A stretch of DNA of 64,000 bases from an uncultured Planctomycetota bacterium (GCA_963845755.1 CAWJTV010000005.1:64001-128000), one strand, 5' to 3'. Shown: positions 11,089-36,628, counted from the first letter of the stretch. Program-made: numbers and translations. Notes: generated from the letters alone by a model not told the origin.

Positions 11089-11236
11089 TTGGATCAGGAT
11101 CGTCGGCAACCGATTAGCGCGCATCAGTCGAATGACTTGCCCAGACTCATGCGTGCCAAGGTGGGAGGGACTGGAAGAAGAGCGAGCCAGGACCGCGATC
11201 GACCGATCACGGAATGGCTCAACTGGCTCTCCGACA

Positions 11237-13302
11237 ATGACTCGCTTCCTGACCGCTGCCGACAACTTGATCGCAAGGAGTTTGCCCATGTCGAACAGTC
11301 CGGTCCAGAGACTGTCGGCCAGTCCCGGGAATCGATGTCGGAGCCGGGTCATCCCGGCTGCACTCCTCCTCTTGATCCCCGGCGTGTTCGTCGTGAGGGG
11401 CGACGAGGAGGCCAACTCGGTTTGGCCGAACACCCTTCGGTTGCAGCCGCTCGCCCCGGGGAGCCAGGGCCGCGACATCATCAAACTTCGGGCCTATGAC
11501 CATATCGGCTCCCCCTCATGCTCTCATGACGGCCGCTGGGCGGCCTTCGATGCGTTCAAGATTGTTTCCCCGGAAAAGGTGAGTTCACCGGAATGCTTCA
11601 TTGTGCGGTTGGACGGTACAGGGTTGAGCAAGCTGGCGGAGGGGACAACCCCGCGGTGGTCCCCTGATGGAAAGCGATTATTGTTCATGCGTGAGGGCCA
11701 AGGCGACCCCGATAAGGACCTGGGCGTCTTCGTGATCGACCGCGACGGCACTGGCAAGCGGCGGATCGGTCCGGGACGCTGGCCCGACTGGTCGCCCGAC
11801 GCATCGCAAGTCGCCTATTCACGAGGTGGTCCGGATGGCGGCGGTGCGCGACCTGGGGCCCGGATCTATATCGCCAAGATTGACGGATCCCGCCCCAGAC
11901 AGCTCTGCGATGGAGATTGCCCAAGCTGGTCGCCCGACGGTCGGAGGATCGCCTGTTGCCGCGTTGATCCAGGCCGTCCGGCGCCCGAGATCCGAGTCGT
12001 CAACGTCGAGACCGGCAAGGGATCGACCGTGGGAACCGGATGGTACCGCCCCGACTGGTCGCCCGACGGGAAGAGCCTGATCTGTAACGGGCAGGTGGAT
12101 CGGGATCAGGTCATGGTCAAGCTCTCGCCAGACGATCCCGGAATGCCACCTGTAGCACTCCCAGCAGGCAAAGGACACGGAACGTCCCCCTGTTATGCCG
12201 GCGAGGCGAGCGCCTGGGTCTTCGTCGATGAGCGCTCGCGGGCCGGGAATGCCGATCCACCGCATACCTTCGACGGGAGATATGATATTACGACGATCGA
12301 TTTGACGGTTGTTTACCTCGTGCCCAAGGACCGGCGGGCGTTGGTTGACTGGCGCGAGCGAGTTCGACTACTTCACGAGGCGCATCGCGGCGTTCCACCA
12401 TCGAGAGTCGGGGGGCCGATCGACGCTGCGGATCCATGTTCATCCCGATCCGCTGGTCGCTCCACGGACCGCGCGGGAAATCCGCGGCGACGACCCCGAC
12501 CAGACCTTTGATCACTCGCTCCATGAGGCGCGATCGGCTCTCGGCTGGCCGCGAAAACGGGATGGATTTCCCATCCTGTTCGTCCTGAGTGACATCAACT
12601 GGCGCGAACTCGACGATTTCCATCGGACGATACTCGTCGATCGTGTTCCGCAGTTCGAGGGATCGGTCGATGCGGAAGGACGCCATTTTCCTGGTGCGCC
12701 GTCAGGTGGCTCTCGGGCGATGTACCTTCCGGATGAGGGGATTGGGCTCGGTCTGATCAGCGGCGACGGCTGGCGCGTGCCGTACAGCGGTTCGGACAGT
12801 GCGGTCTATCACGAGGCCATCGGCCACCCGATCGGCCTGCCACACCCAGAGCCGATCGATGATTCGGTGATGGGCGTGGCCCAATACCGGTACTGGATCA
12901 ACCAGACCTGGCTCAATGATTCGCAGAAGCGGGCTCTGGGCTTCTTGGTCCGCGAGGAGCCCGGCGCCGCGAAAGCGGCCCGGCCAACGGTGCGCGACGA
13001 CCTCTTCACGGCCTTCACGGCGTTGCAGAACCCAGTCGTCCCGAGGACCAACGAGCCCGTGACGCTTCGGCTCCGTTGGCCCGAGGGCGTGAAGGTGCGA
13101 GAGCTGAAAGCTGCGCGTGCAAACCGAGCTGTCAGGGCCGTGGCTGGCCCTCCCCATCGGTTCTCCGGATCGACTTCCGTCCACTTTGGATGTGGGACAA
13201 TTCGACCGTCCCACGCCAGTGAGCTATCGCCTTGATGCGACCCTTGAGGACGGACAGTCGGTTGAGCTTTGGGGTTATTTCCAGGTCGTGTCACCCAAAT
13301 GA
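11237..13302 (+). CDS. Secreted TolB-like (PD40 repeat) beta-propeller fused to a zinc metallopeptidase-like domain (frameshifts ~12370 and ~13110; start uncertain)
   Basis: Repeated PxWSPDG motifs; hydrophobic signal-like stretch; HEAIGHPIGLPH zinc-binding-like motif followed by DSVMG. Confidence 0.7.
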
Positions 13303-16278: not shown

Positions 16279-16485
16279 CGCTGTAGCGTAAGGACCTCTG
16301 TGGAGTGGGTGAAACGCACCAAGAAGTGACCCGATCCGGGTGGGTTTCATCCACCTTACACAGGCACCTGGAATAGGACTGACGTTGCGGCGTACGGGTC
16401 TCCGTGGATTGGGTGAAACCGAACAAGACGTGCTCCGATCCTGGTGGGTTTCACCCACCCGACACGGGAAACTTGGACTGACGCC
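16271..16485. repeat. Tandem ~104-bp units, each containing a REP-like palindrome pair (BIME-like)
   Basis: GGACTGACG recurs at 16272, 16376 and 16475. Each full unit carries TGGGTGAAAC...GTGGGTTTCA(T/C)CCACC. Confidence 0.75.
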
Positions 16486-16509
16486 TGCAAGGCCAGCATG
16501 AGGGTGGGG

Positions 16510-19500: not shown

Positions 19501-19676
19501 AGCGCCTGGCTCGCCGGTTCAACGACGAGGACCCGGCCTGCTCCGTCGCGTCGTTCCTGGACGACGTCGATCGCACGACCCATCGCACGCGAGCGATCTT
19601 CGATCAGATTATTACGGCGCAGGCTCAGCAGGCAGTTCGAGCCGTTCCTGGTCAAATGTCCGCCGCGAACCCCTGA
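16510..19676 (+). CDS. glnE: Bifunctional glutamine synthetase adenylyltransferase/adenylyl-removing enzyme GlnE (frameshifts ~17050 and ~18720)
   Basis: Two nucleotidyltransferase motifs, GKLGGIELNYSSDIDL and GKFGGRELNYHSDLDL; also YRVDMRLRPDG, WERQAL, KTGRGGIRDVEF and KRGFGGVADIEF. Confidence 0.93.
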
Positions 19677-19710: not shown

Positions 19711-22700
19711 ATGAACGAATCCGGCGATCAGCGCAGCCTCATCGATCTACTCGCGGAGGAGTTCCTCGAGCGGAAGCGTCGCGGAGAAGAGCCCTCGGTC
19801 GCCGAGTACGCCGTACGTTTTCCGGAGCTTGGGGACGATATTCGGAAGGTTTTTCGCGCGATCGCCATGATCGAATCGCTCAAGCCGGGGTCGAAGGAGT
19901 CGATCGACGCGATCTCTCCCGTCATACCGGGGGGCCGCGGAGCCATCCCCGAGCGTCTGGGCGATTTCCGCATCCTGCGATTCGTGGCCGAAGGAGGAAT
20001 GGGTTATGTCTTCGAGGCCGAGCAGGAGTCGATGAACCGTCATGTTGCGCCTCAAGGTCCTGAAACCCCAGGCCCATAGTCCGAAGATGCTGGCCCGGTT
20101 TCTCCGCGAGTCGAAGGCGCCGGGCCGTCTGCATCATACGAACATCATTCCGGTTTTCGGCATCGGCGAGTGCGACGGTCTCCACTTCTACGCGATGCAG
20201 TTCATTCACGGCAAATCCCTCGAACGAGTCATCTCCGACCTTCGTCGCCTCCAGAATCGCGACGATGAGACGGTGGCACGAAGCGCCACGGGCTCGGGAG
20301 CCGAGAGATCGTCAACCCTGGCTTCAATCTCTCAAGGACTGAGGACCGGGGTCTTCGGTGGCACCGTGCTGATCGAGGCGTGGCGGCAGAACGGGACTGG
20401 CGCGGACGACTCCGGGTCGGCGGGCCTATCGCCGACTCAGCTTTCCGACGGCGCGATCGCTCGACCAACTGAGGCGGAGAATCACGCCGACCCATCAACA
20501 GCCACGGACCAGTCGGGCTTGAGTTCCTCCGCCCGTGACACGTTTTACAAGAGCGCCGCGCGAATCGGCGAGCAGGCAGCCCGCGCGCTGGGAAGCGCCC
20601 ACCGCAACGGCATCCTCCACCGAGATATCAAGCCATCCAATCTTCTGATCGACCTCCAAGGCAATGTCTGGGTCGCTGACTTCGGACTGGCGTATGAAGA
20701 AGACGCCGAAGACATCTCCCACGGCGACGTTGTCGGAACCCTCCGGTTCATCCCACCCGAGCGGTTCAGGCAAATGTCGTTGCCGCAGGGCGACGTGTAT
20801 TCGCTCGGTCTGACCCTCTACGAGCTCGTCACGCTTGAGCCGGCGTTCCGGAGCAGCCATGCGCGTCACCTGCTGCGGTCGCTGGAGTACGAGCAGCCCA
20901 AACCTCCGCGGGCGATCGATGGGAGAATCCCGAAAGACTTCGAGACGATCATCCTGAAGGCGATCGATAAGGACCCCGCTCGTCGTTACGAGACGGCCGA
21001 CGCGATGGCCGACGATCTGCTCGCGTTCCGTGAGGACCGGGAGATTCGGGGCCGGCGCGTCCGATGGGATGAGAGGCTTGCGCGATGGTGCCGGCGCAAT
21101 CCCGTCATGGCCGTCCTCGCCGCCTCGGTCTTGTTGCTGTTGTCGACGATCGCCGCGGGCATGTCGCTCTCGGTGGTCTGGCTCAGGAAGGAGCGCCAGG
21201 CCACACTCCAGCAGCTCAGCCTGACCCGCGAGGCTGAGGACCTCGGCCACCGCCGCCTGTTGGACTCGCTTCTGGCGCAGGCGCAAGCACGTCGGCGGGG
21301 AGTCGAGGTCGGCCGCAGGTCCCAGAGTCTGGATGCGGTCGCTCGAGCCGGCCGACTCATGCGGGATCTTGGCCTGACCACCGAGAAACAGCTCCTCTTG
21401 CGTAATGAGGCGATCGCCTGCATCGCGCTGGTCGATCTCTTGCCCATTCGAACCCTTCCCGAGCTGCCGGGAGCGGATCGCGGCCCTGGCGGGGAGCTGT
21501 CCGATATCTATCTCCCGTTTGATGCCGATTTCAGTCGCTGCGCCCGCATGATCGAAGATCGATGTCTCGCGATCCTCGACACGACACAGGGGACAGTCTT
21601 GAGGCGGCTGGCAGCACCCCCAGGGATTTTCGCCGGTGGATTCAGTCAAGATGGCCGATATGTCCTGGCTACGGCCTCGGAACCGACCGCGGGACCGACC
21701 CTTGCCGTGTGGGATCTGACCCGGGACGGGTCGGCGCCGACGATCCTCATGGAGCGTTCCGTGATCTCCTGGGCATTTCACCCAGACGGCCATCGGCTGG
21801 CGATCGGCCGGCCACAAGACGGAGTGATTACTCTGCTCGAACTCTCCTCCGGACGCCAGTTGGGCCTGATCGGATCGGGCCCGGCCCCGACGCAAAATGA
21901 GCAGGCGATGGCCTTCTCGCCGGACGGGACGCGTCTCGCCGTGGGGACCGATGAGGGGGAATCCGTTCGGATCTACGACCTCGCGAGCGGCGCCCTCGCG
22001 GACGAGTGGCACGTCGGAACCTCGGTCTCCTCCCTGGCCTGGAGCGACGACGGCCGACTGCTGGCCGCGGGCTGCGACGACCTGCAAATCTATCTCAGAG
22101 ACATGGCCCCCCTGCACGGTGCCCCTCCGGTTGTCGTCTCCACCTTGTCGGGACACAAGAACAACGTGTTCAAGGTGGCGTTCGTCGGCGGGCTCCTCGT
22201 ATCGACGTCACATGACGAGACCGTGCGCATTTGGGATCCGATCCGTGGGGCCGAATTGACCTCTTGTCCGGGTCAGTACTTCCATCGGGGGCCCGACAAG
22301 ACGGTCCTGATCGAAGCACCCTCCTTGAGGTTGAAGTACGAGGTGATGTCGATTGTCGGAGGCGAGTTCCGATGGATTCCGCAGGGGTTGTTCGGCAACC
22401 GGATGGCCCGGCCTTCGGGCATAACGTCCGCAGTGAGCTTCCATCCGAGTGGCGGTTGGCTAGCAACAGCCAACTCGGATGGGGCCAGGCTCTACGACAC
22501 CGAGAAGGGCATCGAAGTCGCCTGCCTGACTGGTAGTGATCCGAAGTTCAGTAGTGTGGCGTTTCACCCCGAGGGCCGTGAATTATTGACCCACGGCGGT
22601 GCCGGGGTTCAGCTCTGGCCGATCCGCATGGAATCCGGTCCGGCGGCAGGCTTACGGGTCGGAGTACCAAGTCTCGTGGCGTCAACAGGTTTTCAGGGTC

Positions 22701-23404
22701 CTTGCAAAGCACCCTACCGCGCCGATGGTCAGGCGCTGGCCTTTGCCGTACCCAGCGAGGGCTGGGTCGGCGTGATTCCCGATGGCAAACCGGATCGTTT
22801 GGTGCGCCTCGGTCCCCATCCGAGGGTCCGGCACGTCAGCCTCAGTACCGATGGGCGTTATGCGGCCACCAGCACCTGGAAGGGTTCCGGTGTCAAGATA
22901 TGGGACCCGCTCGGAGGCTCCCTGCTCCATGAGATCACCAGCCATTCCGCGCGCTGCGAATTCAGCCCGGACGGCCGTTGGCTGGGCACCTCGTTTCATG
23001 GCAAGTACCAGCTATGGCAGGTGGGATCCTGGCGGTCGGGTCCCGTCATCCACAGCGAGGATAGCGACAGCCACGGACCACTGGCGTTTTCACGCGACGG
23101 AACCCTCGTGGCGGTGAGCGTCGATTTTAGCCGCCTGATCAAGCTCGTCCGCCTCGATACGGCCTCCGAGATCGCCACGCTCGAGCCGCCCGACCAGGCC
23201 ACGATTCACGATCTCGCGTTCAGCCCCGATGGCGCCCTGCTCGCCGCAGCGACCAGCGACCACGCCACTCATCTCTGGGACCTTCGTGCCGTTCGTCTCG
23301 AACTGGCACGAATCGGCCTCGACTGGGACCTGCCCCCACACTCCTCCCCGCGCTCGGCCATGACCCTCGGCCCGCGCCGGGTGACGTTCAATCTCAACGA
23401 TTGA
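19711..23404 (+). CDS. Ser/Thr protein kinase with hydrophobic segment and WD40 repeats (frameshift ~20050)
   Basis: EGGMGYVF, HRDIKPSNLL, DFGLA and GTLRFIPPE; hydrophobic helix after WCRRNP; multiple AFSPDG/GH...IWD repeats. Confidence 0.9.
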
Positions 23405-24047: not shown

Positions 24048-24616
24048 CGCGGCCTTCGGTCGCTACCAAGAAGGGATTCGGGATTCCGGATTCGAGATTC
24101 GAGATTCCGGATTCGAGATTCGAGATTCGGGATTCGGGATTCGAGAATCGGGATTCGAGAATTCGGGATTCCGGACTCGAGATTCGAGATTCGAGATTCG
24201 AGATTTGGGACTCGAGATTCGGGATTCCGGACTCGAGATTCGGGATTCGAGATTTGGGATTCGAGATTCGGGATTCGAGATTCGGGATTCCGGACTCGAG
24301 ATTCGGGATTCGGGATTCGAGATTCGGGATTCGGGATTCGAGATTCGGGATTCCGGAATTCGGAATTCGGAATTCGGAATCCGGAATTCGGGTTCCGGAT
24401 GAAAAAGGAATAGGGAATCCGGAATCAAGGATTCCCAGTTGTGCGCACGGCGCAGGGATCGTACGGAGATCGGCTCTAATGCGGCGATCGGGCCGAAGAG
24501 AATCCGGATTCGCCATTCGCGATTCCAGATGAGCGATGACTCGGGAATCTGGAATCGCGAATCTTGAATCTCCAGGATACGCGCACCGCGCAGGCATCCT
24601 TCGGAGGAATACTCTA
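24048..24616. repeat. Two tandem copies of a heptamer-array repeat element; the first contains ~330 bp of (GGGATTC/GAGATTC/CGGATTC)n
   Basis: 7-bp periodicity from 24072 to 24400, followed by complementary GAATC-type units. The flanks are conserved and shared with 50172-50328. Confidence 0.9.
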
Positions 24617-25642: not shown

Positions 25643-27275
25643 ATGGCAGCCCTGCGGATGATCGAAGGCGATCGGCCTGGCACGGTGTACCGGCTGGAGA
25701 AAGACGAGACAGTGATCGGGAAAGCCGCGGAGTGCGACATCCCGCTGTGCGACGTGCACGTTTCGAAGTCGCACGCGAAGATCGTCCGCCAAGCCGACGG
25801 CTTCTACCTCGTAGACCTCGACAGCACGAACCATACGAAGCTCGAGGGGGAGCGTCTGCCGGCGATGCAGCCCCGCCGCCTGCTCGACGGCGACACAATC
25901 AAAATATGCAGATTCACATTTGTCTATAGTGGGGGCGATCTGGCCCAGGAAGGGGCGCCCGACGATCCTCGACTCGATCGAGGTGCTATCGTCCGGCGGC
26001 CGGCCGCGTGCCGGGGCCAAGGCGGAAGAAAAACTCCGGGTCGTCATGGATATCGTCAGGGAGCTGGTCGGGGTCCTGGAGCTTTCGGCCGTGCTCGAGA
26101 AGGTGCTGGAGGCATTATTCCAGATTTTCCCCCAGGCCGAGCGCGGGTTCGTGCTGTTCCAGGAGTCGCGGACGAATCAGTTGCAGGTCCGCGCCAGCAA
26201 GTTCCGGCATCGCGGGACGGAGCGATCGGCGCCCAGCCGCACGGTTTACGATCACGTCACGAAGGAGGGCCTGGCGATCCTCTGCGAGGACGTCCCCGCC
26301 GACAGCCGGTTCGGCTTGATCCATAGCCTCGAGATGAACCAGGTTCGGACGATGATGTGCGTACCGCTCTGGGATCACCAGCACCGGGCGATCGGTGCCC
26401 TCCACGTGGATACTCGCGATGGACGGAGCCGGTTTACCCAGGACGACCTCGATTTCGTCGTCGCGCTGGCCGGCACGATCAGCATGGGCGTCGAGAACGC
26501 GCAACTGCATGAATGGGACGTCATCATGGAGCGCCGCAAGCAAGAGGCGCGAGATGCTCGTGCGGTGCAGTTGTCCCTGATCCCGGTACGATCCCCGGAC
26601 CTACCCGGGTATGCATTCTGGCACGACTACGAACCGGCGGAATTCGTCGGCGGCGATTACTTCGACTATCATCCGCTGCCAGGGGCGGATGCTTCGGCGC
26701 CGTCGAGACGATGGGCCGCCGCCGTGGGTGATGTCGCCGGCAAGGGGATGCCGGCCGCGCTGATGATGGCCCGTCTTTCCGCCGAGGTGCGACTCCTCGT
26801 CCAGGTGGAGCCCGACCCGGTCCGGTTGGTCCGTCGCCTGAATCGCAACCTGTGTGAGGTCGGTGGCGAGAAGTTTGTCACGTTCCTGCTCGTGATCGTC
26901 AACGCGGACCGTCACAGCCTGACGGTGATCAATGCGGGTCATCCGTCGCCGATGATCCGTCGGGCGGACGGACGCCTCGATCTCGTCACGGCGACCAGGG
27001 CCTCGATGCCCCTCGGGGTGAAGGACGACGAGACCTACCATGCCTCAACGACCCCGCTGGCGCCCGGTGATGTTGTCGTGCTCTTCACCGATGGGGTCGA
27101 GACCATGAGTCGAGAGGGCGAACTTCTGGGAATGGAACGACTGAAGCGGATCATCGCCGAGGCACCTCCGGTTGTTGCGTCGGTCGGCGAGGCCATCCGC
27201 GACGCGGTTCGACTCCATTCTGCGGGGCGAAGCCAGTTCGACGATATCACCATCCTCTGCTTCGGGCCGGTGTGA
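25643..27275 (+). CDS. FHA-GAF-SpoIIE (PP2C-type) phosphatase, paralogue 1 (frameshift ~25935)
   Basis: FHA (VIGK...VSKSHAKI...DLDSTNHT), GAF (MCVPLWD...FTQDDL) and SpoIIE (VGGDYFD, GDVAGKG, NAGH, FTDG, DDIT) motifs. Confidence 0.9.
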
Positions 27276-27343
27276 CCCGCGCTCGCCTGTGATCACCCCG
27301 GGAGCCCCGGTCGTGATTCGAGCGCTTAACGCTTGAATGACGA

Positions 27344-27423
27344 TCGCCGGACGGAGCCGGCTCCTACAAAACGACGTTGGTCCGGCTTGCGGTCCGGGTG
27401 TAGGAGGGGGCTCTGTCCCCCGA
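27344..27423. repeat. REP-like inverted repeat with GTAG ends
   Basis: TCGCCGGACGGAGCCGGCTCCTACA ... TGTAGGAGGGGGCTCTGTCCCCCGA. Confidence 0.65.
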
Positions 27424-27590
27424 CCCTCAGCTCCAGCCGATCCCCCTCCCGGACCATTACCCGTTTAACATGAGAAACTCAGCCGGGTAAAATGCAAGGA
27501 AATCGCGCCCGAGCGTCGATCGCGATTGGAGAAGTGAGGAAGGCTTCCTGTCGCTGAGTGCTCGCATGGATCAGCGAGGAGTACGACTCC

Positions 27591-29241
27591 ATGCCGACGT
27601 TGCAGATGATCAAGGGAGAGTGGCCACAGAAGCTGTATCGACTCGCTCAGGAGGAGACGGTCATCGGCAAAGGGCCTCATTGCGACATCATCCTTCCGGA
27701 TGAACATGTTTCGACGCTGCACGCCAAGGTCGTTCGTCGCCAGGACGGCCTCTACATCGAAGACCTCAACAGCAAGAATGAAACGAAGGTCGGTCGAGAC
27801 CTCCTGGAAAAGGTCACGGAACCGCGGCGTCTGACACATGGCGATGAGATCAAGATCTGTAAGTATCGGTTCATTTATCTCGAGGGCGAGCCGATCCCGG
27901 GTGAAACGCTGACGGTGCTGGAAACGATCGGCGTGTTGACGGCCGACGTGCGCAGCCCCGGTGAGTTCGAGTTCCGAGGAGAAGCTTCGGGTTGTCGAGG
28001 AGATGTGCGGCGAGTTGATGGGGGTGCTCGACCTCGACGCGGTGCTGGGGAAGGTCCTTGAGGCGTTATTGCGCATCTTCCCGCAGGCCGAGAGGGTCCT
28101 GCTCGTGTCGCAGGATGGGGATACGCGAGAGCTCCGAGTCCGGGCGAGCCGTATCCGGCACGCCGATCGGGACCGAGCGGCACCCAGTCGTACAGTCTTC
28201 GATCTGGTCACTCGCGAGGGCCACGCAATCCTCTGTGCGGACATCAGCGCGGACGTTCGACTCTCCGAGAGTGACAGTCTCGGCAAAGCCCGGGTCCGGA
28301 CGATCATGTGCGTTCCAATCTGGGACACCGAACGTCGCCCGGTCGGCGTACTGGAACTCGACGCGGAACATCGGCAGGGCCGGTTCACCCAGGAGGATCT
28401 CGACTTCCTCGTCGCCCTGGCGACCACGATCAGCATGGCGCTCGAGAACGCTCGGCTGCACGACCTGGCCCTGAGGCTTAGAGAGTGGGATCGGGAGGGG
28501 CAGGATGCCAGGGTGGTGCAAGACTGCCTGATCCCGGCGCGACCTCCGGAATTGCGAGGCTATGAATTCTGGCATTACTACCAGCCGGCTCGCTTCGTCG
28601 GCGGAGATTATTTCGACTATCGTCCGCTGCGCCGGCAGCGCGCTCTCGCGGCGGCCGCGACGGCGAGACGATGGGCCATCGCGGTCGGTGACGTCTCGGG
28701 CAAGGGGATGCCTGCGGCCTTGCTCATGGCCGGGCTCTCGAGCGAGGTTCGACTCCTGCTCGACACCGAGGCTCGGGCGATTGGTGTGATGGGACGACTC
28801 AATCGAAGCCTCTGCGAGACAAACGTGAGCGGGAGGTTCGTCACCTTCCTGCTGGCCATGCTGGATGGAAAACGTCACGAGCTGACGGTGCTCAACGCCG
28901 GCCATCCCTGGGCGATGATCCGTCGCGCCGATAAGACCGTCGAGCTGATCGGTGAGGGGCTACAGTCGATGCCCCTGGGTATCCAGGATGATGACGATTA
29001 CCAGACGGTCCCGACCGCGATCAAGCCGGGCGATGTGGTGGTCCTCTGCACGGATGGCGTCACGGAGGCGATGAACTCTGACCTCGAAACGTTCGGCATC
29101 TCGGGCCTGAAGCGGTCGCTCTCGGAGGCACCCGCCGGGGCGGCCGCGGTCGGGGCGGCGATCCTCTCCGACGTCCGCCGCCATGCCGCCGGCCAGGATC
29201 CGAACGACGATATTACCCTCCTCTGCTTCGGACGGCCATGA
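27591..29241 (+). CDS. FHA-GAF-SpoIIE (PP2C-type) phosphatase, paralogue 2 (frameshift ~27955)
   Basis: Same architecture as paralogue 1: VIGKGPHCDI...VSTLHAKV...DLNSKNET; MCVPIWD; VGGDYFD, GDVSGKG, NAGH, CTDG and DDIT. Confidence 0.9.
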
Positions 29242-31748
29242 TCCTGGACAGGCACGAACTTGAATCGACACCCCCCTGGCACTCGTCCGGTGAAACAACC
29301 ACGGATTCCCCGTCGCTCGACCCCGGCCGGGGGATCGGCTGGTATCACCTGGAGAGCGTCTTGGGCGAGGGTACGTTCGGACGGGTCTACCTGGCCCAGC
29401 ATGAAGTCCTGGGCCGGCGAGTGGCGATCAAGGTGTTGAATCGACGGCATGGGTCCGGGCGACAGGAAATCCGTGCCTTTCTCAACGAGGCCCTCATTCT
29501 GGCCGAATTCAACCATCCGGGCATCGTGCCGGTCTTCGACGCCGGCTGGACGGAAGATGGTTTGTACTACATCGTGTCGCGTTATGTGGAAGGGGGCGAC
29601 CTGCGTGGCGTTCTTGCGCGAGGCCGGCAGCCCGCCCGGCGCACCGCCGAGATCACGATCGCGGTCGCGGAGGCGCTGGCCTACGCCCATGCTCACGGCC
29701 TGGTCCACCGCGATATCAAGCCGGCTAATATCCTCATGGATCTCGACGGCAAGCCGCTGGTGGCCGACTTCGGGGTGGCCCTCCGAGACAAGGATTTCGG
29801 CCGAGGGACCAGGCTTGCCGGCACACCCGCGTATATGAGTCCCGAGCAAGCTCGGGGCCAGGGGCACCGGGTGGATGTCCGATCGGACATCTTCAGCCTG
29901 GGCGTCGTCTTGTATGAGATGCTGACGGGCCGACGTCCTTTCCGGGGCGCGGACCCGCGCGAGCTCTCGGAGCAGATCATTCGCGGGCCGGCCGTTCCTC
30001 CCCGTGAAATCGACGGGACCATCTCCGAGGCCGTGGAGCGGGTTTGTCTCAAGGCCATCGAGAAGCGGCCCGGAGATCGTTACACGACGGCGCTCGATCT
30101 GGCGAGGGATCTCCGGGAATACCTCGATACCGATGAGGTCCACCTCGGGACGAGCGTCGCGGTCGAACCCGACCCGGATGATCCCGACACCGTCTCACCC
30201 TCGCGGCCGAGCCCCACGTCGTCGGCCGCGAGCCGAGAGATCGTGTTGATCTCGACGAGGACGGGATACTCGACTACGGACTTGCACGCGCTCAAACTTC
30301 GACCGCGCGGATTGCGGCCTTTCGGGCGAAAAGACGCCGGTTTTTTCCAGGACCTGCTCCCCGGGCCTCGCGACCAGAACGGGTCGCCCGAGATCCTGGG
30401 CTTCTGGCGATCTCGGATCGAGGGCTCAGACGGCCGAGAACCCCTCCGGCTCGGTCTCGTGTTCGGCCCCTCTGGCTCCGGCAAGTCCTCGATGGTCACG
30501 GCTGGCCTCCTGCCGCTCCTGTCCGAGCGCATTTCCGTGGTTTCCATCGAGGCGACAGCCGCCGATACCGAGGGCATCCTCCTGACGAAGCTGCGGTCTC
30601 GATATCCCCGCCTGCTCGCCGGATTCAACCTCGCTGCCTCGTTCATCGCGGCCCGGAAGGGCCTTATCCTCCCGCTCGGAAGACGTCTGCTCATCGTCAT
30701 CGATCAGTTCGAGCGCTGGCTGCGTACCGCGCGACCCCGAGACGAGCAGGGATTGCTGGCCGCATTGCGACAGTGTGACGGCGAGCACGTTCAGGCCCTC
30801 CTCGTGGTCCGGGACGACTCCTGGCTCGCCGCCAGCCGGCTCCTGAGAGATCTGGGGGATCGCCTGATCGAAGGGGAGAATATTACACCTATTGATCCGT
30901 TTGATCCGAGACATGCCCGGGCGGTCCTGTCGGCCTACGGCAGGGCCTTCGGGGGCTTGCCCGAGGATGCGACACTCCTCACGGAAGAGCATGAGAAGTT
31001 CCTCGACGATGCGATCTCGGCGTTGTCGAGGGACGGTCCGCTTATCCCCATTCGACTGGTCCTCTTCGCAGGGCTGCTCGGACATCGGGTCTGGAACACG
31101 TCGAGATGGGAGGCCATCTCACGATTGGGAAACGACGATGCGGCCTATCTCGAAGCAGCCTTCGACACGGAAACTGCGCCCGCCGATCGCCGTGCACATC
31201 GACAGGCCGCCCGCTCGGTGCTAAAGGCACTCTTGCCGGCAAACGAGGAGAGGGCCCCGTTGCCAATCCTCTCGTATCGCGACATCGTCGAGGCATCCGG
31301 TCGTGCAACTCAGCCCTTCGAATGCCAGGCCCTCTTTCGCATCCTCGAGGAGGAGCTACGGCTCATCACGCGAGTCGATGTCGCGAGTCGAGCCGAATCC
31401 GAAGGGCCGCCCGCGGAGAGGGAGAGTTTCACCTACCGCCTGGGTCACGACTATCTCGTCGGACCCCTCTCCCTCTGGCTAGCCCGTGATCGAACCTCGC
31501 CATCATGCCATGTTCGAGGAGAGCATCATCCCCGACAAGAACTTACGGATCCCGGCAGGACGCGGAACCAGCCGATCGATCTGAATACGGCCAGCGAGTC
31601 GGAATTGAGGAGCCTGCCGGGCGTCGGACCGGTAATCGCTCACCGAATCATCGAGGCTAGACCTTGGCGGTCGGCCGCCGATTTGTTGAGGATCAAGGGT
31701 ATCGACGAGAAGCGTCTCGAAAGGCTTCAACCCCTGATCCGGCTGTAA
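29238..31748 (+). CDS. Ser/Thr kinase - STAND-type P-loop NTPase - ComEA-like helix-hairpin-helix fusion protein
   Basis: Kinase motifs GEGTFGRV, VAIK, HRDIKPANIL, DFG and GTPAYMSPE. Walker A GPSGSGKSS, Walker B LLIVIDQFE, and YRLGHDYL. C-terminal IDLNTASESELRSLPGVGPVIAHRII...LLRIKGI. Confidence 0.85.
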   Translation: MILDRHELESTPPWHSSGETTTDSPSLDPGRGIGWYHLESVLGEGTFGRVYLAQHEVLGRRVAIKVLNRRHGSGRQEIRAFLNEALILAEFNHPGIVPVFDAGWTEDGLYYIVSRYVEGGDLRGVLARGRQPARRTAEITIAVAEALAYAHAHGLVHRDIKPANILMDLDGKPLVADFGVALRDKDFGRGTRLAGTPAYMSPEQARGQGHRVDVRSDIFSLGVVLYEMLTGRRPFRGADPRELSEQIIRGPAVPPREIDGTISEAVERVCLKAIEKRPGDRYTTALDLARDLREYLDTDEVHLGTSVAVEPDPDDPDTVSPSRPSPTSSAASREIVLISTRTGYSTTDLHALKLRPRGLRPFGRKDAGFFQDLLPGPRDQNGSPEILGFWRSRIEGSDGREPLRLGLVFGPSGSGKSSMVTAGLLPLLSERISVVSIEATAADTEGILLTKLRSRYPRLLAGFNLAASFIAARKGLILPLGRRLLIVIDQFERWLRTARPRDEQGLLAALRQCDGEHVQALLVVRDDSWLAASRLLRDLGDRLIEGENITPIDPFDPRHARAVLSAYGRAFGGLPEDATLLTEEHEKFLDDAISALSRDGPLIPIRLVLFAGLLGHRVWNTSRWEAISRLGNDDAAYLEAAFDTETAPADRRAHRQAARSVLKALLPANEERAPLPILSYRDIVEASGRATQPFECQALFRILEEELRLITRVDVASRAESEGPPAERESFTYRLGHDYLVGPLSLWLARDRTSPSCHVRGEHHPRQELTDPGRTRNQPIDLNTASESELRSLPGVGPVIAHRIIEARPWRSAADLLRIKGIDEKRLERLQPLIRL

Positions 31749-32024
31749 TGGCGGCGCGATCGACCATCACGCCCGCTCATTCGAGCCTGTTCCCATCCGG
31801 GATCCCGTCAGGGAATCCTCGAGCCTCGACGTTACGTGGGGCCCTGGGGCCGAACTGGTCCCGAGAGTGATCCATGGGGGGATTCTGGAGACATCAGGTT
31901 GGCGCGAAGGTATTCTCGATGGGGTGGCGAAGGATTGCAAATTCGAGGGACACGAAGGTGGTCGACGTCATCGAGGATGGTGTGGCGACCTGGGTGGACA
32001 CTCGGCCAGAGACTGAGCGGATTG

Positions 32025-32768
32025 ATGATAGGATATGCGACTTCGGTTCACGTCCTGGCCGTGCTCTTCGTCGCGACGTTGATCCGGTCGGCGTTCGGAT
32101 TTGGCGAAGCCTTGGTGGCCGTGCCGCTGCTCGCCTTGGTGATTCCGGTCGAAGTGGCCGCACCACTGGCGACTCTGGTCTCGGTCACCGTCGCCGCTGC
32201 GATCATCGTCCAGGACTGGCGCGAGATCCATGCGCGCAGCGCCTGGAGGCTGGTCTGCTCGACCTTTCTCGGCATCCCGCTTGGCTTGTTGATATTGAAG
32301 ACGGTCCCCGAACCGATCGTTAAGATGCTCCTGGCCATCGTGATCATGGCGTTTTCGATGGATCGCCTGATTCGTCGTCGGCATGCGGAATTGACGGACG
32401 ATCGATGGGCGTGGTTCTTCGGCTTCGGCGCAGGGATCCTGGGGGGTGCCTACGGCATGAATGGGCCGCCGTTGGTGGTCTACGGGACCCTGCGACGCTG
32501 GTCGCCCCAGCACTTTCGCGCCACGCTCCAGGGTTACTTCCTGCCCGCCAGCCTGGCCGGACTCGGCGGCTACTGGTTGGCCGGCTTCTGGGCCCCGGCA
32601 GTGACGAACTATTTCCTGTTGTCGTTGCCGATCGTGCTGGCCGCCATCATCCTGGGCCGCCAGGTCAACCAGCGGTTGAAGGGGTCCTCGTTCATCTTCC
32701 TCATTCATCTCGGACTGGTCGTCATCGGAGTCGTGTTGTTGGGACAGTCGTTGGTCGGCTTTCTGTAA
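32025..32768 (+). CDS. Sulfite exporter TauE/SafE family membrane protein
   Basis: RSAFGFGEALVAVPLL and GILGGAYGMNGPPLV; multiple transmembrane segments. Confidence 0.85.
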   Translation: MIGYATSVHVLAVLFVATLIRSAFGFGEALVAVPLLALVIPVEVAAPLATLVSVTVAAAIIVQDWREIHARSAWRLVCSTFLGIPLGLLILKTVPEPIVKMLLAIVIMAFSMDRLIRRRHAELTDDRWAWFFGFGAGILGGAYGMNGPPLVVYGTLRRWSPQHFRATLQGYFLPASLAGLGGYWLAGFWAPAVTNYFLLSLPIVLAAIILGRQVNQRLKGSSFIFLIHLGLVVIGVVLLGQSLVGFL

Positions 32769-32855
32769 GATGTTCTCAGCGTGTTACGGCCGATCGAGCG
32801 GGATTACTTTCCCCGCACGGCCGGATTCTCAGGTTGAACTCGAGAGGTCAATCCC

Positions 32856-34082
32856 GTGAAGTTTGTTTCTTCAACCGTCCTGATGGTCGTTTTGACTCTG
32901 ATCCCAATCTCATCTGTCGCGCAGGGCCCTGCCCCGCTGCCCAAGCTGGCGACGCGCGTGGCATTCCCGAATCTGTCCTTCGACCGGCCGGTGGCGATGG
33001 CGTATCCGGATGACGGCAGTCGTCGACTGTTCGTCGTCGAGCAGCACGCTGGCAGGATCTGGTCGTTCCTCGACCGCCGCGAGATGCGTTCCAAGCGATT
33101 GTTCCTCCAGCTTCGCGCTCCGATCCACAAGGGGAACGAGGAAGGTCTGCTCGGGCTGGCGTTTCACCCGAAGTTCAAGGTGAACAAGCAGTTCTTCGTC
33201 TACTATTCGGCCAACGATCGAGGAGACAGGCGATCCGTTGTCTCACGGTTCTCGCTGGCTCGCTCGGATGACCGGATCGCCGACCCGTCGAGCGAGCAGC
33301 GGATCTGGGTCTCCGATAAGGATCCGTTCGAGAACCATAACGGCGGCACCATCGCGTTCGGTCCGGACGGGTATCTCTACATCACGCTCGGGGATAGCGG
33401 AGCCGCGGATGATCCGCTCCTGAGCGGCCAGAATCCCCGCGACTGGTTTGCCTCGATCCTGCGAATCGACGTCGATCACCCGGAGGGAGGCAAGGCCTAT
33501 GGCATCCCCCGCGACAATCCGGCGCGGCGCGATTCCAAGTTCGTCCACTGGGCGCCCGAAGTGTATTGCATCGGGCTGAGGAACGTCTGGAAATTCAGCT
33601 TCGATCGGCAGACCGGGGAGTTGTGGGCCGGCGACGTCGGACAGAACCTCTGGGAGATGGTCCATCGGATCGAGAATGGCGGGAACTACGGCTGGAGTAT
33701 CAAGGAGGCCTCTCACTCGTTCCATCCCGAACGGAGGCATGCGCCGGATCCGGCTGCACCCATCCAGCCGCCGATCGTCGAATATCCCCACTCACCGACG
33801 CGCGAGCGGCCCGATAGCGGCCTGAGCATCACGGGGGGCTATGTTTACCGTGGCAAGAAGATCCCCGACCTGGTGGGTGTCTACGTCTACGGCGACTTCG
33901 ACAGCGGACGGATCTGGGGACTCCGCTATCAGGACGGCAAGGTCGTCGCCAAGGACGAGCTGATCGACGTCAGGCGCGGCAAGCTCAACATCGCCTCATT
34001 CGGCGAGGATGCGGACGGAGAGCTTTACATCCTGGCGTTCGACGGCAAGATCCATGAGCTGGTGCGACGCCAGGGGCGTTGA
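32856..34082 (+). CDS. PQQ-dependent soluble sugar dehydrogenase family protein (GSDH), secreted
   Basis: Signal peptide; EEGLLGLAFHP, NHNGGTIAFGPDGYLY, GLRNVWKFSFD, GDVGQ, GGNYGW, SITGGYVYRG and SFGED motifs. Confidence 0.88.
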   Translation: MKFVSSTVLMVVLTLIPISSVAQGPAPLPKLATRVAFPNLSFDRPVAMAYPDDGSRRLFVVEQHAGRIWSFLDRREMRSKRLFLQLRAPIHKGNEEGLLGLAFHPKFKVNKQFFVYYSANDRGDRRSVVSRFSLARSDDRIADPSSEQRIWVSDKDPFENHNGGTIAFGPDGYLYITLGDSGAADDPLLSGQNPRDWFASILRIDVDHPEGGKAYGIPRDNPARRDSKFVHWAPEVYCIGLRNVWKFSFDRQTGELWAGDVGQNLWEMVHRIENGGNYGWSIKEASHSFHPERRHAPDPAAPIQPPIVEYPHSPTRERPDSGLSITGGYVYRGKKIPDLVGVYVYGDFDSGRIWGLRYQDGKVVAKDELIDVRRGKLNIASFGEDADGELYILAFDGKIHELVRRQGR

Positions 34083-34220: not shown

Positions 34221-35439
34221 TCAACCCGACCGTGAGCCATTCTCAATTCGATCGAGGGTATCGAGGGCCCCCAGGAATTCCCGCCAAAGGTCGTCCGGAT
34301 CCTCGAGGCCCACCGAGATGCGAACCGTGCCTTCGGTGAGGCCCTGGCGCGCCAGGAGTTCTGCGTCCTGACCGCGATGACTGGTGGTTGCCGGATGGCT
34401 GAGCGTCGTCTGGACGTCACCCAGGCTCGGGGCGAACGGGATCGATGCGGACAGGCCACGAATCAACGCCTCGGCCTTCGGGCGGGTGCTCAGGTCGATC
34501 GTCACCATCGTGCCCCCGCCGTCCTTGAGCAAATGCGAGGCTAGACCCGAATTCGGATGCGATGGGAGGAGCGGGTAGTAGACGCGATCGACCTGAGCGT
34601 GCGATTCGAACCGTCGTGCCAGCTCGATGCGCCGTGGCGCACGCCCGGCTCATCCGCAGCGTGAGCGTTGAGAGTCCGCGGAGCGCCAGCCAGCTCTCAA
34701 ACGGATTGCCCGTCTGGCCCAGCGTGGAAGCCACGGTCCGGACCTCTTCCACGAATCGGCTTTGACCAATGAGCGCTCCCAGAGTCAGGTCGCTATGGCC
34801 GCCGATCATCTTCGTCACCGAGTGGGCCACCACGCTTGCCCCGTGCTCGAGCGGGCGACAGATCACGGGCGCGAACGTATTGTCGACAACCAGCGGGATC
34901 CCGGCCTCATTGGCGACCGACCCCAGCCCCGAAAGGTCGGCGACGCGGAGCAACGGGTTCGAGATCGTCTCGACGAAGATCAGCCGCGTTTTCGGATTCA
35001 GCAGCGACTTCGCCTCGTGGGGCCTGGCCGAGTCGAAGATGCTGTGCGTGATCCCCCACCGCGTGAGTTGTCGCGTCACCAGCGCGTTCGTCTTGCCATA
35101 GAGCCCCTCGGCGATCAGCGCATGATCGCCCTGATCGAGAAGTGTCAGCATGCATGAAGCCATCGCGCCCATGCCGGAGGCGCAGATCAAGGCCGCCTCA
35201 CCGCCCTCGAGCTGCGCCAGCTTCGCGGCGAGCTGAGCAGCGTTGGGGTGGCCATCACGTGCGTAGATGAAGCCCTTGGCGGAGCCGTTGTACAGTGCGT
35301 TGACGTGATCCAGATCCTCCGGGCAGTAAACGACGCTCAGGTCGATGGGGGGGACCAGAGGCCGGCTGGTTGACGCTGCGGATCCGGGACCGTGCGCACA
35401 GAGGGTCGAGGCGTGGGGACGGGAAGGATTCGTAGACAT
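34221..35439 (-). CDS. PLP-dependent trans-sulfuration enzyme (cystathionine gamma-synthase/lyase family; frameshift ~34625)
   Basis: YARDGHPN, ASGMGA, ETISNPLL, VVDNTFA, HSVTKMIGGHSD (PLP lysine), SLGDVQT..SHPATTSH and RISVGLED. Confidence 0.9.
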
Positions 35440-35473
35440 CGTGAGCACGCTCCGGTCCATGGTTGCGACGGGC

Positions 35474-36628
35474 TCAGGTTGGCAAACTCTTTCGGTGGAA
35501 CCGTGCCCCAAGACCCAGTAGAGAGATGATCTCGCCGAGTTTGCGAAGCGACATCCACGGGTTCTTCGCGGTACGAGCATCGGCTTCCTGGCGACGAAGT
35601 GTGGCCAGGAGAGTCCAGTCGATTGACCAGGCTTGTTCGATCGCCTGCTCCTGTGCGGTCCGGGTCAGATCGTGAAGCCGGCCGATCAGGTCCTCGTCGA
35701 TCGGGCAAGCGGCCGTCCGGTAAGGATGGTCCTCGACGACCGGTGTCGTGCTGGAGCGCCGATTCTTGAAGAGGCCCGTGAAGTGCTTCCGCCATCCCAC
35801 GGAATCGCCGCCGTCATGTCGAGTGATCTGACCGGGCTGTTGCTGAACCTCGGTGGAATCGGGATCGATCCACGCGCCAATCCGGACGATCAGGACCGTG
35901 ATGTTGTCCATCCCTCCTCGCAGGTTGGCCAGATTGATGAGGTAACGACAGGCATCGCGCGGATGGAAGTTCGCGGCAAAAGCACCGAGCTCGCCGTCCT
36001 CGACGGGGCCGGAGAGGCCGTCCGAACAGAGGAGAAAGACGTCCCCAAGTTCGATGGCCAGCGGGCCCTCGATATCGACCTCGATATCGACCTCCGGGCC
36101 GAGGCTGCGCGTGATGACGTTCTTGGGGACCGAGATGTTGGCCTGTTCCGACGTCAGGTGATTGCGGCGAACCAACTCCCAGACCAGGCTGTGATCGAAC
36201 GAGAGTTGGTCAATCCGCTCGCCACGGGTGCGATAGACCCGGGAATCGCCGACATGGGCGATCAGTGCGCCTTCCGGCAGCAGGAGCAGCGCCGACGACG
36301 TCGTCCCCATCCCCTGGAACTCGCGATTGGCCGAGGCACGGCTGTGGATCAGGGCGCTGACGTCGCGAAAGGTCTTGACGATCGCGTCCGACGGCGTCCC
36401 CGACCGCGTTTTCATGTAGTTGTGCGGGATCAAGTCGCAGGCCATCTTGCTGGCCAGCTCCCCGACGGCATGAGCCCCCATCCCATCGGCGACCAGGAAG
36501 ACATGCCCGCGCTGCCGCCAAGCCTCCCCGTGCGGGGCCCGTACGATCGTGTAGCTATCCTGATTATTCGAGCGACGCATCCCGGTGTCCGTCGCGGCTG
36601 CGTCGATGATCACGTCGTCCCAGTTCAC
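35474..36628 (-). CDS. PP2C-family (PrpC/Stp1-like) Ser/Thr phosphatase with C-terminal extension
   Basis: TDTGMRRSNNQDS, VADGMGAH..GELAS, GMGTT, HVGDSRVY, DHSLV, NVITRSLG, LCSDGL and GGMDNIT motifs. Confidence 0.92.
   Translation of the reverse strand: MNWDDVIIDAAATDTGMRRSNNQDSYTIVRAPHGEAWRQRGHVFLVADGMGAHAVGELASKMACDLIPHNYMKTRSGTPSDAIVKTFRDVSALIHSRASANREFQGMGTTSSALLLLPEGALIAHVGDSRVYRTRGERIDQLSFDHSLVWELVRRNHLTSEQANISVPKNVITRSLGPEVDIEVDIEGPLAIELGDVFLLCSDGLSGPVEDGELGAFAANFHPRDACRYLINLANLRGGMDNITVLIVRIGAWIDPDSTEVQQQPGQITRHDGGDSVGWRKHFTGLFKNRRSSTTPVVEDHPYRTAACPIDEDLIGRLHDLTRTAQEQAIEQAWSIDWTLLATLRRQEADARTAKNPWMSLRKLGEIISLLGLGARFHRKSLPT

Follow-up and report, generated by a model that had tools for sequence, protein, structure and literature searches.

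A planctomycete gene pair coupling an FHA-GAF-PP2C phosphatase to a kinase-nSTAND1 protein that ends in a ComEA-type helix-hairpin-helix

Helix-hairpin-helix (HhH) domains of the ComEA type bind DNA non-specifically; can one of them serve an NLR-like kinase as its sensor? The question is raised by a stretch of 64,000 nt from an uncultured Planctomycetota bacterium (hereafter the window), in which an earlier note proposed that a kinase-STAND-HhH protein, coupled to two FHA-GAF-PP2C phosphatases, forms a nucleic-acid-sensing phospho-switch. Answering it requires knowing whether the fusion is real, which phosphatase belongs to the kinase, and what the HhH might contribute.

A kinase, an nSTAND1 NTPase and an HhH in one gene

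The kinase gene occupies 29238..31748 on the plus strand, as do all the features described below at its 5' side and within it. As the earlier note had it, this is a single uninterrupted ORF; it encodes 836 aa, and the three profiles anticipated there (Pkinase, an nSTAND1-like NTPase and HHH_3) were all found above their Pfam cut-offs. The gene's ATG overlaps the stop of the second phosphatase within the sequence ATGA (29238-29241), again as described, and 29153-29360 is covered by contigs of the public runs X1 and X2. The Hanks-type Ser/Thr kinase domain (aa 36-284, 29343..30089; Pkinase PF00069, E 6.7e-49, 167.1 bits against a cut-off of 31.7; pLDDT ~90) is conserved across 12 orthologs (alignment A3) and has intact catalytic motifs, VAIK at aa 62, HRDIKPAN at aa 157 and DFG at aa 177, with VAIK, HRD...N and DFG almost unchanged throughout the same alignment (at least 90% of rows). 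From this profile match and these motifs the kinase is predicted to be catalytic. A disordered interdomain linker rich in Ser, Thr and Pro follows (aa 304-347, 30147..30278; pLDDT <50). Its Thr340 is nearly invariant in alignment A3 and falls in a 76-aa stretch (aa 297-372) with 17 Ser and Thr residues; the Thr340 linker is a candidate phospho-acceptor and FHA docking site.

The NTPase module (aa 350-755, 30285..31502; pLDDT 89) comprises a nucleotide-binding domain (NBD), a helical domain (HD) and a winged helix (WH). The motifs named earlier are all present: GPSGSGKSS, the Walker A motif, at aa 410 (30465-30491), LLIVIDQFE, the Walker B motif, at aa 484 (30687-30713), and GHDYL at aa 736. 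Residues G413, G415, K416, D489 and E492 are invariant in alignment A3. The nSTAND1 match (PF20703, aa 404-565, 55.0 bits against a cut-off of 27.1) aligns just profile positions 34-197 of 379, and a paralog in this genome aligns positions 34-375. An NBD-HD-WH fold is predicted with confidence (STAND model pLDDT 89.1), and Foldseek searches with this model retrieve Cdc6/Orc1 (2qby_A, 3.4e-10), ZAR1 (6j5t_C), CED-4 (2a5y) and the NRC1 NB-ARC (8bv0_A, TM 0.46/0.62).

Beyond aa 755, where we looked for a large C-terminal sensor (FGE-sulfatase/FGS, WD40 or TPR), there is none, and the protein consists of a tether and a 59-aa HhH alone. The tether (aa 757-775, 31506..31562; pLDDT <50) is disordered and differs in length and sequence between orthologs (alignments A1 and A3); from GHDYL...WLARDR to the HhH the linker measures about 25 aa, as had been described. 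The ComEA-type double HhH (aa 778-836, 31569..31745; pLDDT ~95) matches HHH_3 at aa 778-835 (56.5 bits against a cut-off of 27), and its closest solved relative is the ComEA-related PDB 2duy_A (E 2.2e-15 over 59 residues). Kinase, STAND and HhH are the confident regions of the predicted model, and the linkers are disordered. Searching the 836-aa protein for a hydrophobic or transmembrane (TM) segment or an export signal returned none; because the highest 19-aa Kyte-Doolittle window reaches just 1.44, it has no TM-like segment, in keeping with the earlier reading.

An assembly artefact can be dismissed as the origin of the kinase-STAND-HhH fusion. As a check on the junction of the kind proposed earlier, one public run yields a 151-nt contig that is identical to 31473-31623 and spans the passage from STAND to HhH. 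Both genomes and metagenomes hold further examples. The STAND-tether-HhH layout is found in P0132 and in two more genomes of the family, G049 and G010, the G049 protein (823 aa) being 50.7% identical to the window's kinase from end to end; further, Pkinase or nSTAND1 occurs together with HHH_3 in 12 of the 120 relatives listed. One candidate explanation, a separate ComEA-like gene joined by an assembly indel to a truncated kinase-STAND gene, was ruled out on the exact contig and on the same fusion elsewhere, and we regard it as extremely improbable. It could appeal to the indels to which this assembly is prone and to the alternative frames, which have stops right after GHDYL and an out-of-frame ATG near 31510, but it is contradicted as well by the diverged linkers of the fusion in those 12 database proteins, G049 and G010, and by the genome's sole other HhH match, just 38% identical. 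On both sequence-based points that the earlier note named as refuting, a separate HhH gene and a fusion confined to this genome, the outcome favors its reading of the architecture.

In a tree of 79 tips, the 12 HhH kinases that were placed form one clade with support 1.0 (the HhH-bearing fragment P0153 was left out owing to its coverage). Proteins of about 700 aa (P0160, P0162 and P0163) make up a subclade in which the final ~110 aa of the STAND module are gone and the HhH is retained. The architecture occurs in 3 of 121 family genomes and in none of 400 further genomes of the phylum that were searched; where relatives are named, the label is Isosphaeraceae or Gemmataceae. The earlier note's statement that an FGE-sulfatase or WD40 domain is the usual C-terminus of such kinase-NTPase proteins agrees with the relatives listed, where PF03781 (FGE-sulfatase) is found in 27 of 120 and HHH_3 in 12, and a kinase-WD40 gene lies within the window at 20036-23401. 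Because the fusion recurs in a few relatives, we take it as a real and rare variant of the known kinase-nSTAND1-sensor family, with DNA as its probable trigger.

Two phosphatase copies and one partner

Phosphatase 1 begins with an FHA part (25643..25961; FHA domain 25709-25906, E 5e-17) and continues in the next frame with a GAF and SpoIIE-type PP2C part (25962..27275; GAF 26079-26492, GAF_2 E 9e-13; PP2C 26703-27263, SpoIIE E 4e-44). Phosphatase 2 is built in the same way, from an FHA part (27591..27975; FHA domain 27657-27857, E 4.9e-17) and a GAF and SpoIIE-type PP2C part in the next frame (27976..29241; GAF 28027-28446, GAF_2 E 6.7e-18; PP2C 28666-29232, SpoIIE E 3.8e-46). The claim of two FHA-GAF-PP2C phosphatases therefore stands for the domains of both copies and fails, in both, for a single uninterrupted ORF. 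In copy 1 the FHA lies in the open frame 25643-26326 and GAF-SpoIIE in 25815-27275; the corresponding frames of copy 2 are 27558/27591-28061 and 27940-29241. Taking out one base would join each pair. Copy 1 has one extra base in GCGCCCGACG, at about 25958-25961, and copy 2 loses its frame at about the CC of 27974-27975, a site placed by the 11-residue spacing of VL[ST]-EEKLRV in intact homologs.

Comparison with relatives suggests that these breaks are probably assembly indels. FHA, GAF and PP2C share one frame, and hence one protein, in 104 of the 120 homologs listed, and also in G049, in P0273 and in three other paralogs of the same genome. Independent sequence across the breaks was found for the copy-1 site and none spanning the copy-2 break; at the former, run X3, a ~95% relative, has one base fewer at 25961 and is in frame. 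It is quite unlikely, in our estimate, that the genes are truly split or inactivated, yielding FHA-only and GAF-PP2C products or pseudogenes and leaving the kinase without an FHA-targeted reset. Such a reading would account for the breakage of the FHA-GAF linker in both copies while the other three paralogs are intact in the same assembly, for alternative starts (TTG 25920 and GTG 27961), and for the sister genome G001, of the same genus, which has two bases fewer at the copy-1 site and is also off frame. However, the window has one base too many and G001 one too few within the same very short stretch, a pattern that suggests systematic errors of base calling, and both X3 and P0273 are in frame. 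There is also no decay: the two halves of copy 1 are equally conserved, with 85% identity to aa 1-106 and 86% to aa 103-543 of intact P0273 (the closest copy-2 homolog, among the homologs listed, is just 59% identical). Housekeeping genes within the same 64 kb are frame-broken too, among them those for CheB, GlnE and enzymes of the B12-radical SAM and PLP types. Apparent split genes of this assembly need comparison with relatives before they are given a biological reading.

The proposed coupling of the kinase to two phosphatases holds for copy 2, which is linked to it in other genomes, and not for copy 1. An FHA-GAF-PP2C gene stands directly upstream of the kinase in all three genomic contexts examined, with an overlap of 4 nt in G000 and G049, and the pair is all that the G000, G049 and G010 loci have in common. 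Five kinase/phosphatase pairs from the database sit on contigs of equal size; one is the P0271 phosphatase with the P0151 kinase, and the phosphatase tree mirrors the kinase tree in placing copy 2 with P0271 and the window's kinase with P0151. In G001 copy 1 is kept, and the block of copy 2, kinase and neighboring TauE is missing, with a MarR-like gene at the syntenic site. Judged by gene order and trees, copy 2 alone is the kinase's partner, conserved beside it and diverging in step with it. Phosphatase 1 is an older paralog that shares the site and is not necessarily part of the module.

Together, the pair is a conserved two-gene signaling module of one planctomycete family. Gene 1 (27591-29241) is, by its domains, a predicted FHA-GAF-PP2C (SpoIIE-type) phosphatase; gene 2 (29238-31748) is a cytoplasmic Hanks kinase fused to nSTAND1 and translationally coupled to gene 1; and one tethered ComEA-type (HhH)2 replaces the usual C-terminal ligand sensor of the NTPase (FGE-sulfatase, WD40).

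What the HhH may do

We give about an even chance to the explanation that we favor, in which phosphatase 2 and the kinase-nSTAND1-HhH protein form a DNA-scaffolded switch that the partner phosphatase resets. The HhH would bind dsDNA without sequence preference, and the DNA would act as a scaffold that concentrates protomers and favors ATP-dependent oligomerization of the STAND module. Clustered kinase domains would then trans-phosphorylate the activation loop and the Ser/Thr-rich linker with Thr340, along with other substrates. The FHA of the partner phosphatase would dock on phosphothreonine, its PP2C domain would reset the switch, and its GAF domain may add a small-molecule input. Several observations count against parts of this scheme. 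The FHA 'GR' motif carries the canonical phosphothreonine-binding Arg, and in the five FHA domains read (both window copies, G049, G010 and P0273) an IGK Lys stands at this position; the absence of the usual Arg would weigh against FHA docking. STAS partner-switching proteins are frequent substrates of SpoIIE-family PP2Cs, and the 18 STAS matches elsewhere in the genome would speak against the kinase as the phosphatase substrate. Further, a single (HhH)2 domain cannot tell foreign from chromosomal DNA, and a protein always in contact with the nucleoid fits poorly with DNA as a trigger. The HhH, of 60 aa and flexibly tethered, also has little in common with the large sensors by which STAND proteins are kept closed. 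The interest of the case lies in the sensor: the ligands of bacterial STAND/NLR-like proteins are known to be proteins or glycans, recognized by large repeat or lectin domains, and a clade in which a minimal DNA-binding domain has taken over that position, and has stayed after part of the STAND was lost, suggests nucleic acid as direct ligand or scaffold for a STAND with kinase output. Because the module is compact, with two genes and all domains assignable, DNA-dependent ATPase activity, assembly and phosphorylation are testable in vitro.

A bolder form of the idea, an NLR-like bacterial cytosolic DNA sensor, seems unlikely to us. Here free, foreign or damaged dsDNA bound by the HhH would template a STAND ring or filament, with the kinase as output and the phosphatase providing threshold and reset. 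If true, the protein would be an immune or stress kinase that is templated by DNA and reversible in its action, a functional parallel to AIM2-like receptors, with Ser/Thr phosphorylation as its output in place of a nuclease or a pore.

Activation by DNA, and a role in defense or DNA-stress signaling, are candidate properties with indirect support from context: a rare, patchy distribution, BREX genes nearby in one genome and mobile-element genes nearby in another. It is possible, though rather unlikely, that the pair is an nSTAND1-class counter-invader (anti-phage or anti-plasmid) system with invading or damaged DNA as ligand and the kinase as effector. STAND NTPase-FGS proteins with an N-terminal kinase or FHA, some of them nSTAND1, are predicted counter-invader systems (PMC8195603; PMC10907252). 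The rarity of the architecture fits such a role, as do the missing copy 2-kinase-TauE block of G001, a complete type I BREX (BrxA, B, C, PglX, PglZ, BrxL) ending ~4.8 kb upstream in G010, and the IS66, IS21 IstB, integrase, resolvase and ParB-like genes among which the pair lies in G049. Yet a known defense system is nearby in only one of three contexts, the window's neighbors are housekeeping genes with no specific defense match, and of the 33 PADLOC-DB v2 families matched by the kinase protein, the best 25, with PD-T4-6, mad6, MkoA and C3a189 among them, fall without exception inside aa 17-382, in the kinase region; the phosphatases match 0 families. Nor does the HhH discriminate self from non-self, and a dedicated FHA-targeted reset phosphatase suits reversible signaling better than suicide. 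The kinase output of a counter-invader system could be, for example, cell shutdown by mass phosphorylation, with the phosphatase setting the threshold.

We likewise think it improbable that the protein is a nucleoid-tethered regulatory kinase, whose HhH just localizes it to the chromosome and whose targets are DNA-associated proteins; the STAND would then respond to nucleotide state or another signal rather than to DNA. The HhH is of a type that binds DNA non-specifically, with 2duy as nearest solved relative; its disordered, variable tether is what one expects of a localization domain, and the HhH stays in place in proteins that have lost the winged-helix part of the STAND. FHA-GAF-PP2C genes also pair with several other Hanks kinases of this genome, as in ordinary kinase signaling. 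But localization fails to explain why the HhH sits at the exact place of the paralogs' sensor domains, the shared gene content of G000, G049 and G010 includes no conserved DNA-associated substrate gene, and a patchy, accessory distribution would be odd for a housekeeping role. The DNA-scaffolded two-gene switch remains our preferred reading.

Comparison with known systems

The closest kind is that of the planctomycete kinase-nSTAND1-FGS/WD40 proteins, of the STAND NTPase-FGS class (Kaur, Iyer, Burroughs and Aravind, eLife 2021, PMC8195603). Common to these and the window's protein are a Hanks kinase at the N-terminus, the linker motif that precedes the P-loop and nSTAND1, with 40-50% identity over aa 26-752; upstream of one kinase-nSTAND1 paralog of this genome there is likewise an FHA-GAF-PP2C gene. 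They differ in length (1000-2100 aa) and in their FGE-sulfatase, WD40 or other C-terminal modules: homology ends at about aa 752, where the window's protein has its 59-aa HhH on a short tether instead. Of 80 paralog loci, just 2 have an FHA or GAF-PP2C no more than 7 kb away.

With ComEA and ComEA-related proteins (PDB 2duy, 8dss) the protein shares its (HhH)2 sequence, with LPGVG and KGI hairpins. Unlike ComEA, a small membrane-anchored or secreted DNA receptor, it carries the HhH at the end of a cytoplasmic enzyme with no signal or TM segment, and it scores 36.6 bits against the NCBIfam comEA cut-off of 152.35 (TIGR01259), short of whole-protein equivalence.

Kinase, PP2C and FHA form triads in mycobacteria (PknB/PstP/FhaA-FhaB) and in type VI secretion (PpkA/PppA/Fha1). 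As in those triads, a Hanks kinase gene here adjoins a PP2C and an FHA phosphothreonine reader, and docking of the FHA on the autophosphorylated kinase would follow the same logic. The window's pair differs in that a single polypeptide holds FHA, GAF and a SpoIIE-family PP2C, the soluble kinase is joined to a STAND NTPase, and cell-wall and secretion genes are unlinked. AIM2 has HIN and PYD domains, with neither NTPase nor kinase, and there is no homology to AIM2-like receptors; the likeness to these animal proteins, which assemble on DNA, is a functional analogy only, in which a C-terminal, sequence-independent dsDNA-binding domain would serve an oligomerizing signaling protein.

Domain composition and reality of the HhH fusion

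The kinase ORF (29238-31748) is open throughout and codes for 836 aa, in which Pfam recognizes Pkinase (aa 36-284, 167 bits), nSTAND1 (aa 404-565; 55.0 bits against a cut-off of 27.1, over profile positions 34-197 of 379) and HHH_3 (aa 778-835; 56.5 bits against a cut-off of 27), bearing out the uninterrupted kinase-NTPase-HhH frame described in the earlier note. All motifs cited there for this frame were found in the protein, together with the kinase motifs VAIK, HRDIKPAN and DFG, and its ATG does overlap the stop of the second phosphatase gene (ATGA at 29238-29241). The proposed absence of a TM segment was likewise confirmed, and because the mean hydropathy of 19-aa windows never exceeds its highest value of 1.44, the protein is judged cytoplasmic. 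Judged from its sequence, we assign it to the Hanks kinase and nSTAND1 families as a cytoplasmic protein with this domain set and intact catalytic motifs, and not to the ComEA equivalogs.

A full-length AlphaFold2 model (mean pLDDT 83.9) shows disorder at aa 1-23, 304-347 and 757-775, and places the HhH domain at a pLDDT of ~95. Thr340, within a disordered linker, is nearly invariant in an alignment of HhH-kinase orthologs (A3). In a model of the STAND-HhH portion (pLDDT 89.1), an NBD, a helical domain and a winged helix are visible; Foldseek matches it to Cdc6/Orc1, ZAR1, CED-4 and the NRC1 NB-ARC, and the nearest match to the HhH is the ComEA-related protein 2duy (E 2.2e-15).

The HhH domain is genuinely fused to the kinase-STAND part. 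Public sequencing run X1 has a 151-nt contig that matches 31473-31623 without any difference and bridges the STAND end, the linker and the HhH start, which speaks for one gene rather than a separate HhH gene joined by an indel, the concern raised earlier for 31450-31600; X1 may be the sample of origin, and its exact contig checks the assembly, not the biology. Contigs from public runs also cover the ATGA junction. The same layout recurs, with diverged linkers, in two independent fragments, P0001 (92% identical) and P0132 (41% identity), and an origin of the fusion in assembly error is scarcely conceivable.

Distribution and origin of the fusion

The proposal that other genomes should share this architecture was upheld. 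Matches in 121 family genomes numbered 239; among the 150 listed, the STAND end and HhH occur in one stretch in two genomes besides that of the window (G000): G049, whose 823-aa protein is 50.7% identical to the window kinase end to end, and G010, an assembly full of frame breaks in which the kinase gene is in pieces. When aa 380-836 were used as query, 12 of the 120 listed relatives carried HHH_3 (E 4e-149 to 2e-93) and topped the ranking, bar one paralog at rank 11; in the remaining listed relatives, 27 with FGE-sulfatase, similarity ends at ~aa 752. In a kinase-STAND tree of 79 sequences, from which the fragment P0153 was omitted for low coverage, the 12 HhH proteins placed form a single clade with support of 1.0, which shows that the fusion arose once and was then retained. 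Three members of this clade, of ~700 aa, lack the last ~110 STAND residues and retain the HhH.

Other searches returned no further cases. The fusion was absent from 400 additional genomes sampled from the phylum, where the long HhH ORFs, none of them a kinase, were rejected as relatives (5'-nucleotidase/metallophosphatase-HhH, Tex, small ComEA-like proteins and one unassigned 1361-aa protein). A contig scan of genomes with A3 returned 80 loci, all of them HhH-less paralogs; five apparent matches reaching aa 796-836 (L106, L060, L100, L117 and L111) proved to be extensions into FGE-sulfatase proteins. Metagenome contigs searched with a clade-specific kinase segment yielded no ortholog, just other kinases that lack HhH and reach no more than 67% identity. 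A word-indexed search with aa 700-836 found no match among proteins of 459-1463 aa; the aa 380-836 search did find the family. The genome of the window holds just one other HhH match, 38% identical.

Two observations on other HhH proteins were made in passing. Proteins with 3 to 14 tandem ComEA-type HhH units (G061:C28:6746-7774 and G076:C231:3287-4729, for example) are common in the family genomes and the protein library, and make up most of the best 150 tail matches. A 1361-aa open frame (L039 1-4083, G327:C231) begins with HhH and continues into a large region within which the contig ends.

The phosphatase genes and their pairing with the kinase

The two upstream genes had been described as FHA-GAF-PP2C phosphatases, which was not borne out as such in the window: in both, GAF and the SpoIIE-type PP2C lie in the frame next to that of FHA. 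Copy 1 has FHA in 25643-26326 and GAF-PP2C in 25815-27275; copy 2 has FHA in 27558/27591-28061 and GAF-PP2C in 27940-29241. The intact 543-aa protein P0273 matches the FHA frame of copy 1 over aa 1-106 (85%) and its GAF-PP2C frame over aa 103-543 (86%), which places the frame switch at EGAP|PTIL. A ~95%-identical contig of public run X3 has one base fewer at 25961, restoring the frame, and in the same-genus sister genome G001, which lacks the kinase, the same GCGCC(C)GACG site is two bases shorter than in the window and therefore off-frame by the opposite sign. X1 contigs do not cover the break in the first FHA. For copy 2, where the listed public-run contigs give no independent cover of the break, an extra C can be located at 27974-27975 from the 11-residue VL[ST]-EEKLRV spacing that intact homologs show.

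That these genes are truly split seems quite unlikely. The frames are broken in both copies as assembled; the three other FHA-GAF-PP2C paralogs of this genome are intact, and the window assembly appears indel-prone, with frame breaks in CheB (1615-2732, receiver and methylesterase split), GlnE (16417-19673, spread over three frames), a B12-binding radical SAM enzyme (8112-10239, reverse strand) and a Cys/Met PLP enzyme (34224-35664, reverse strand). Programmed frameshifting was rejected, since the breaks lie at non-homologous linker positions with no 0-frame stop after either, orthologs are in frame, and G001 is shifted by the opposite sign. The evidence strongly indicates an assembly indel in copy 1 and, by analogy, suggests one in copy 2.

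In all three genomic contexts compared (G000, G049 and G010), the kinase is immediately preceded by an FHA-GAF-PP2C gene; in G049 this gene is a single 546-aa ORF with a 4-nt overlap with the kinase start. FHA, GAF and SpoIIE are joined in one ~540-aa protein in 104 of the 120 listed copy 2 homologs, the 16 without FHA each being of 499 aa or less. Five phosphatases lie on contigs equal in size to those of HhH kinases (P0271 with P0151, P0279 with P0154, P0282 with P0155, P0288 with P0158 and P0343 with P0156). Copy 2 groups with P0271, as the window kinase does with P0151, and the partners of P0154, P0155, P0156 and P0158 belong to a different clade of the phosphatase tree; this mirroring of the trees is suggestive only, because the pairs are few and related. 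The kinase and phosphatase genes, whose start and stop overlap, are conserved as a pair and appear to diverge together. Other FHA-GAF-PP2C paralogs of this genome adjoin other Hanks kinases, one of them a kinase-nSTAND1-FGE-sulfatase; at paralog loci of other genomes, FHA or GAF-PP2C occurs within 7 kb in just 2 of 80. One paralogous module (L047, G000:C11:649895-656828) has an intact 597-aa FHA-GAF-PP2C gene and, after it, Pkinase in one frame and nSTAND1-FGE-sulfatase in another.

The earlier coupling of two phosphatases to the kinase held for copy 2 but not for copy 1, whose lineage neighbours that of copy 2 and contains P0273 and the G001 ortholog. Synteny between G001 and the window, compared over 20 kb, extends through GlnE, GNAT, pirin and copy 1 (82% identity) and resumes with the GSDH gene. 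Nothing in G001 corresponds to 27276-32933 of the window, which holds copy 2, the kinase and a TauE-family gene; ~1.1 kb with a MarR-like gene takes its place. Since G001 keeps copy 1 without copy 2 and the kinase, the conserved module is copy 2 plus kinase, which is accessory within the genus. The MarR-like regulator gene (L212, G001:C21, reverse-strand 10640-11720) is frame-broken too. A 1120-aa kinase-WD40 gene (20036-23401) is also missing at the syntenic place in G001, where 89 bases separate the GlnE match from the GNAT match.

Two repeats were noted nearby. Between the GNAT and pirin genes, 24073-24400 is a 7-base tandem array (GGGATTC, 46.7 copies, 81% matches), one frame of which reads as a long SRIPNLE-like repeat. 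The 315-nt gap between the phosphatase genes holds a GC-rich, hairpin-forming REP-like element (27340-27425), which looks like a dispersed repeat because contigs of public runs X2 and X4 are ~90-95% identical to it and continue into unlike sequence.

Proposed mechanism and known systems

We propose that the HhH binds dsDNA, which would serve as a scaffold for ATP-dependent STAND assembly; kinases so clustered would phosphorylate one another and further substrates, FHA would dock on phosphothreonine, PP2C would reset the switch, and GAF may contribute small-molecule input. This scheme has weak points: the HhH cannot distinguish self from non-self DNA, the FHA carries Lys at the usual Arg position, and the SpoIIE-type PP2Cs may instead signal through STAS partner switching (the genome has 18 STAS matches, none at the kinase locus).

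That the pair is a counter-invader system is a possible if doubtful reading. G010 carries a complete type I BREX set (BrxA, BrxB, BrxC, PglX, PglZ and BrxL; L210 78-13819 and L028 16633-18686, G010:C12) whose end lies ~4.8 kb upstream of its kinase-phosphatase pair. In G049 (L027 and L211, G049:C44 166000-205000) the pair is surrounded by genes for IS66 transposase, IS21 IstB, a phage-type integrase, a resolvase and a ParB-like protein, and the next gene downstream encodes the RNA 2'-phosphotransferase Tpt1/KptA. The window's neighbour genes have housekeeping functions and give no specific defence match, and known defence systems (25 listed of 33 families in PADLOC-DB v2) give no match outside the kinase region. 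A kinase tethered to the nucleoid in a regulatory role is rather unlikely. Several BREX genes of G010 are frame-broken, and an AriA/PtuA-like ATPase fragment sits between PglX and PglZ; the G049 pair is immediately preceded by a gene for PP2C alone.

Two papers (PMC8195603, PMC10907252) describe as predicted conflict systems those kinase-nSTAND1 proteins whose sensor is an FGE-sulfatase or repeat domain. No description of the kinase-nSTAND1-HhH fusion turned up in the literature searched, which included passages of PMC10907252, PMC7159879 and PMC8195603; public records name HhH kinases 'serine/threonine protein kinase' or 'ComEA-like protein'. With ComEA, the window protein shares HHH_3 but not equivalog status. 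With the kinase-nSTAND1 proteins that carry FGE-sulfatase or repeat sensors it has both kinase and nSTAND1 in common, and it ends instead in HhH.
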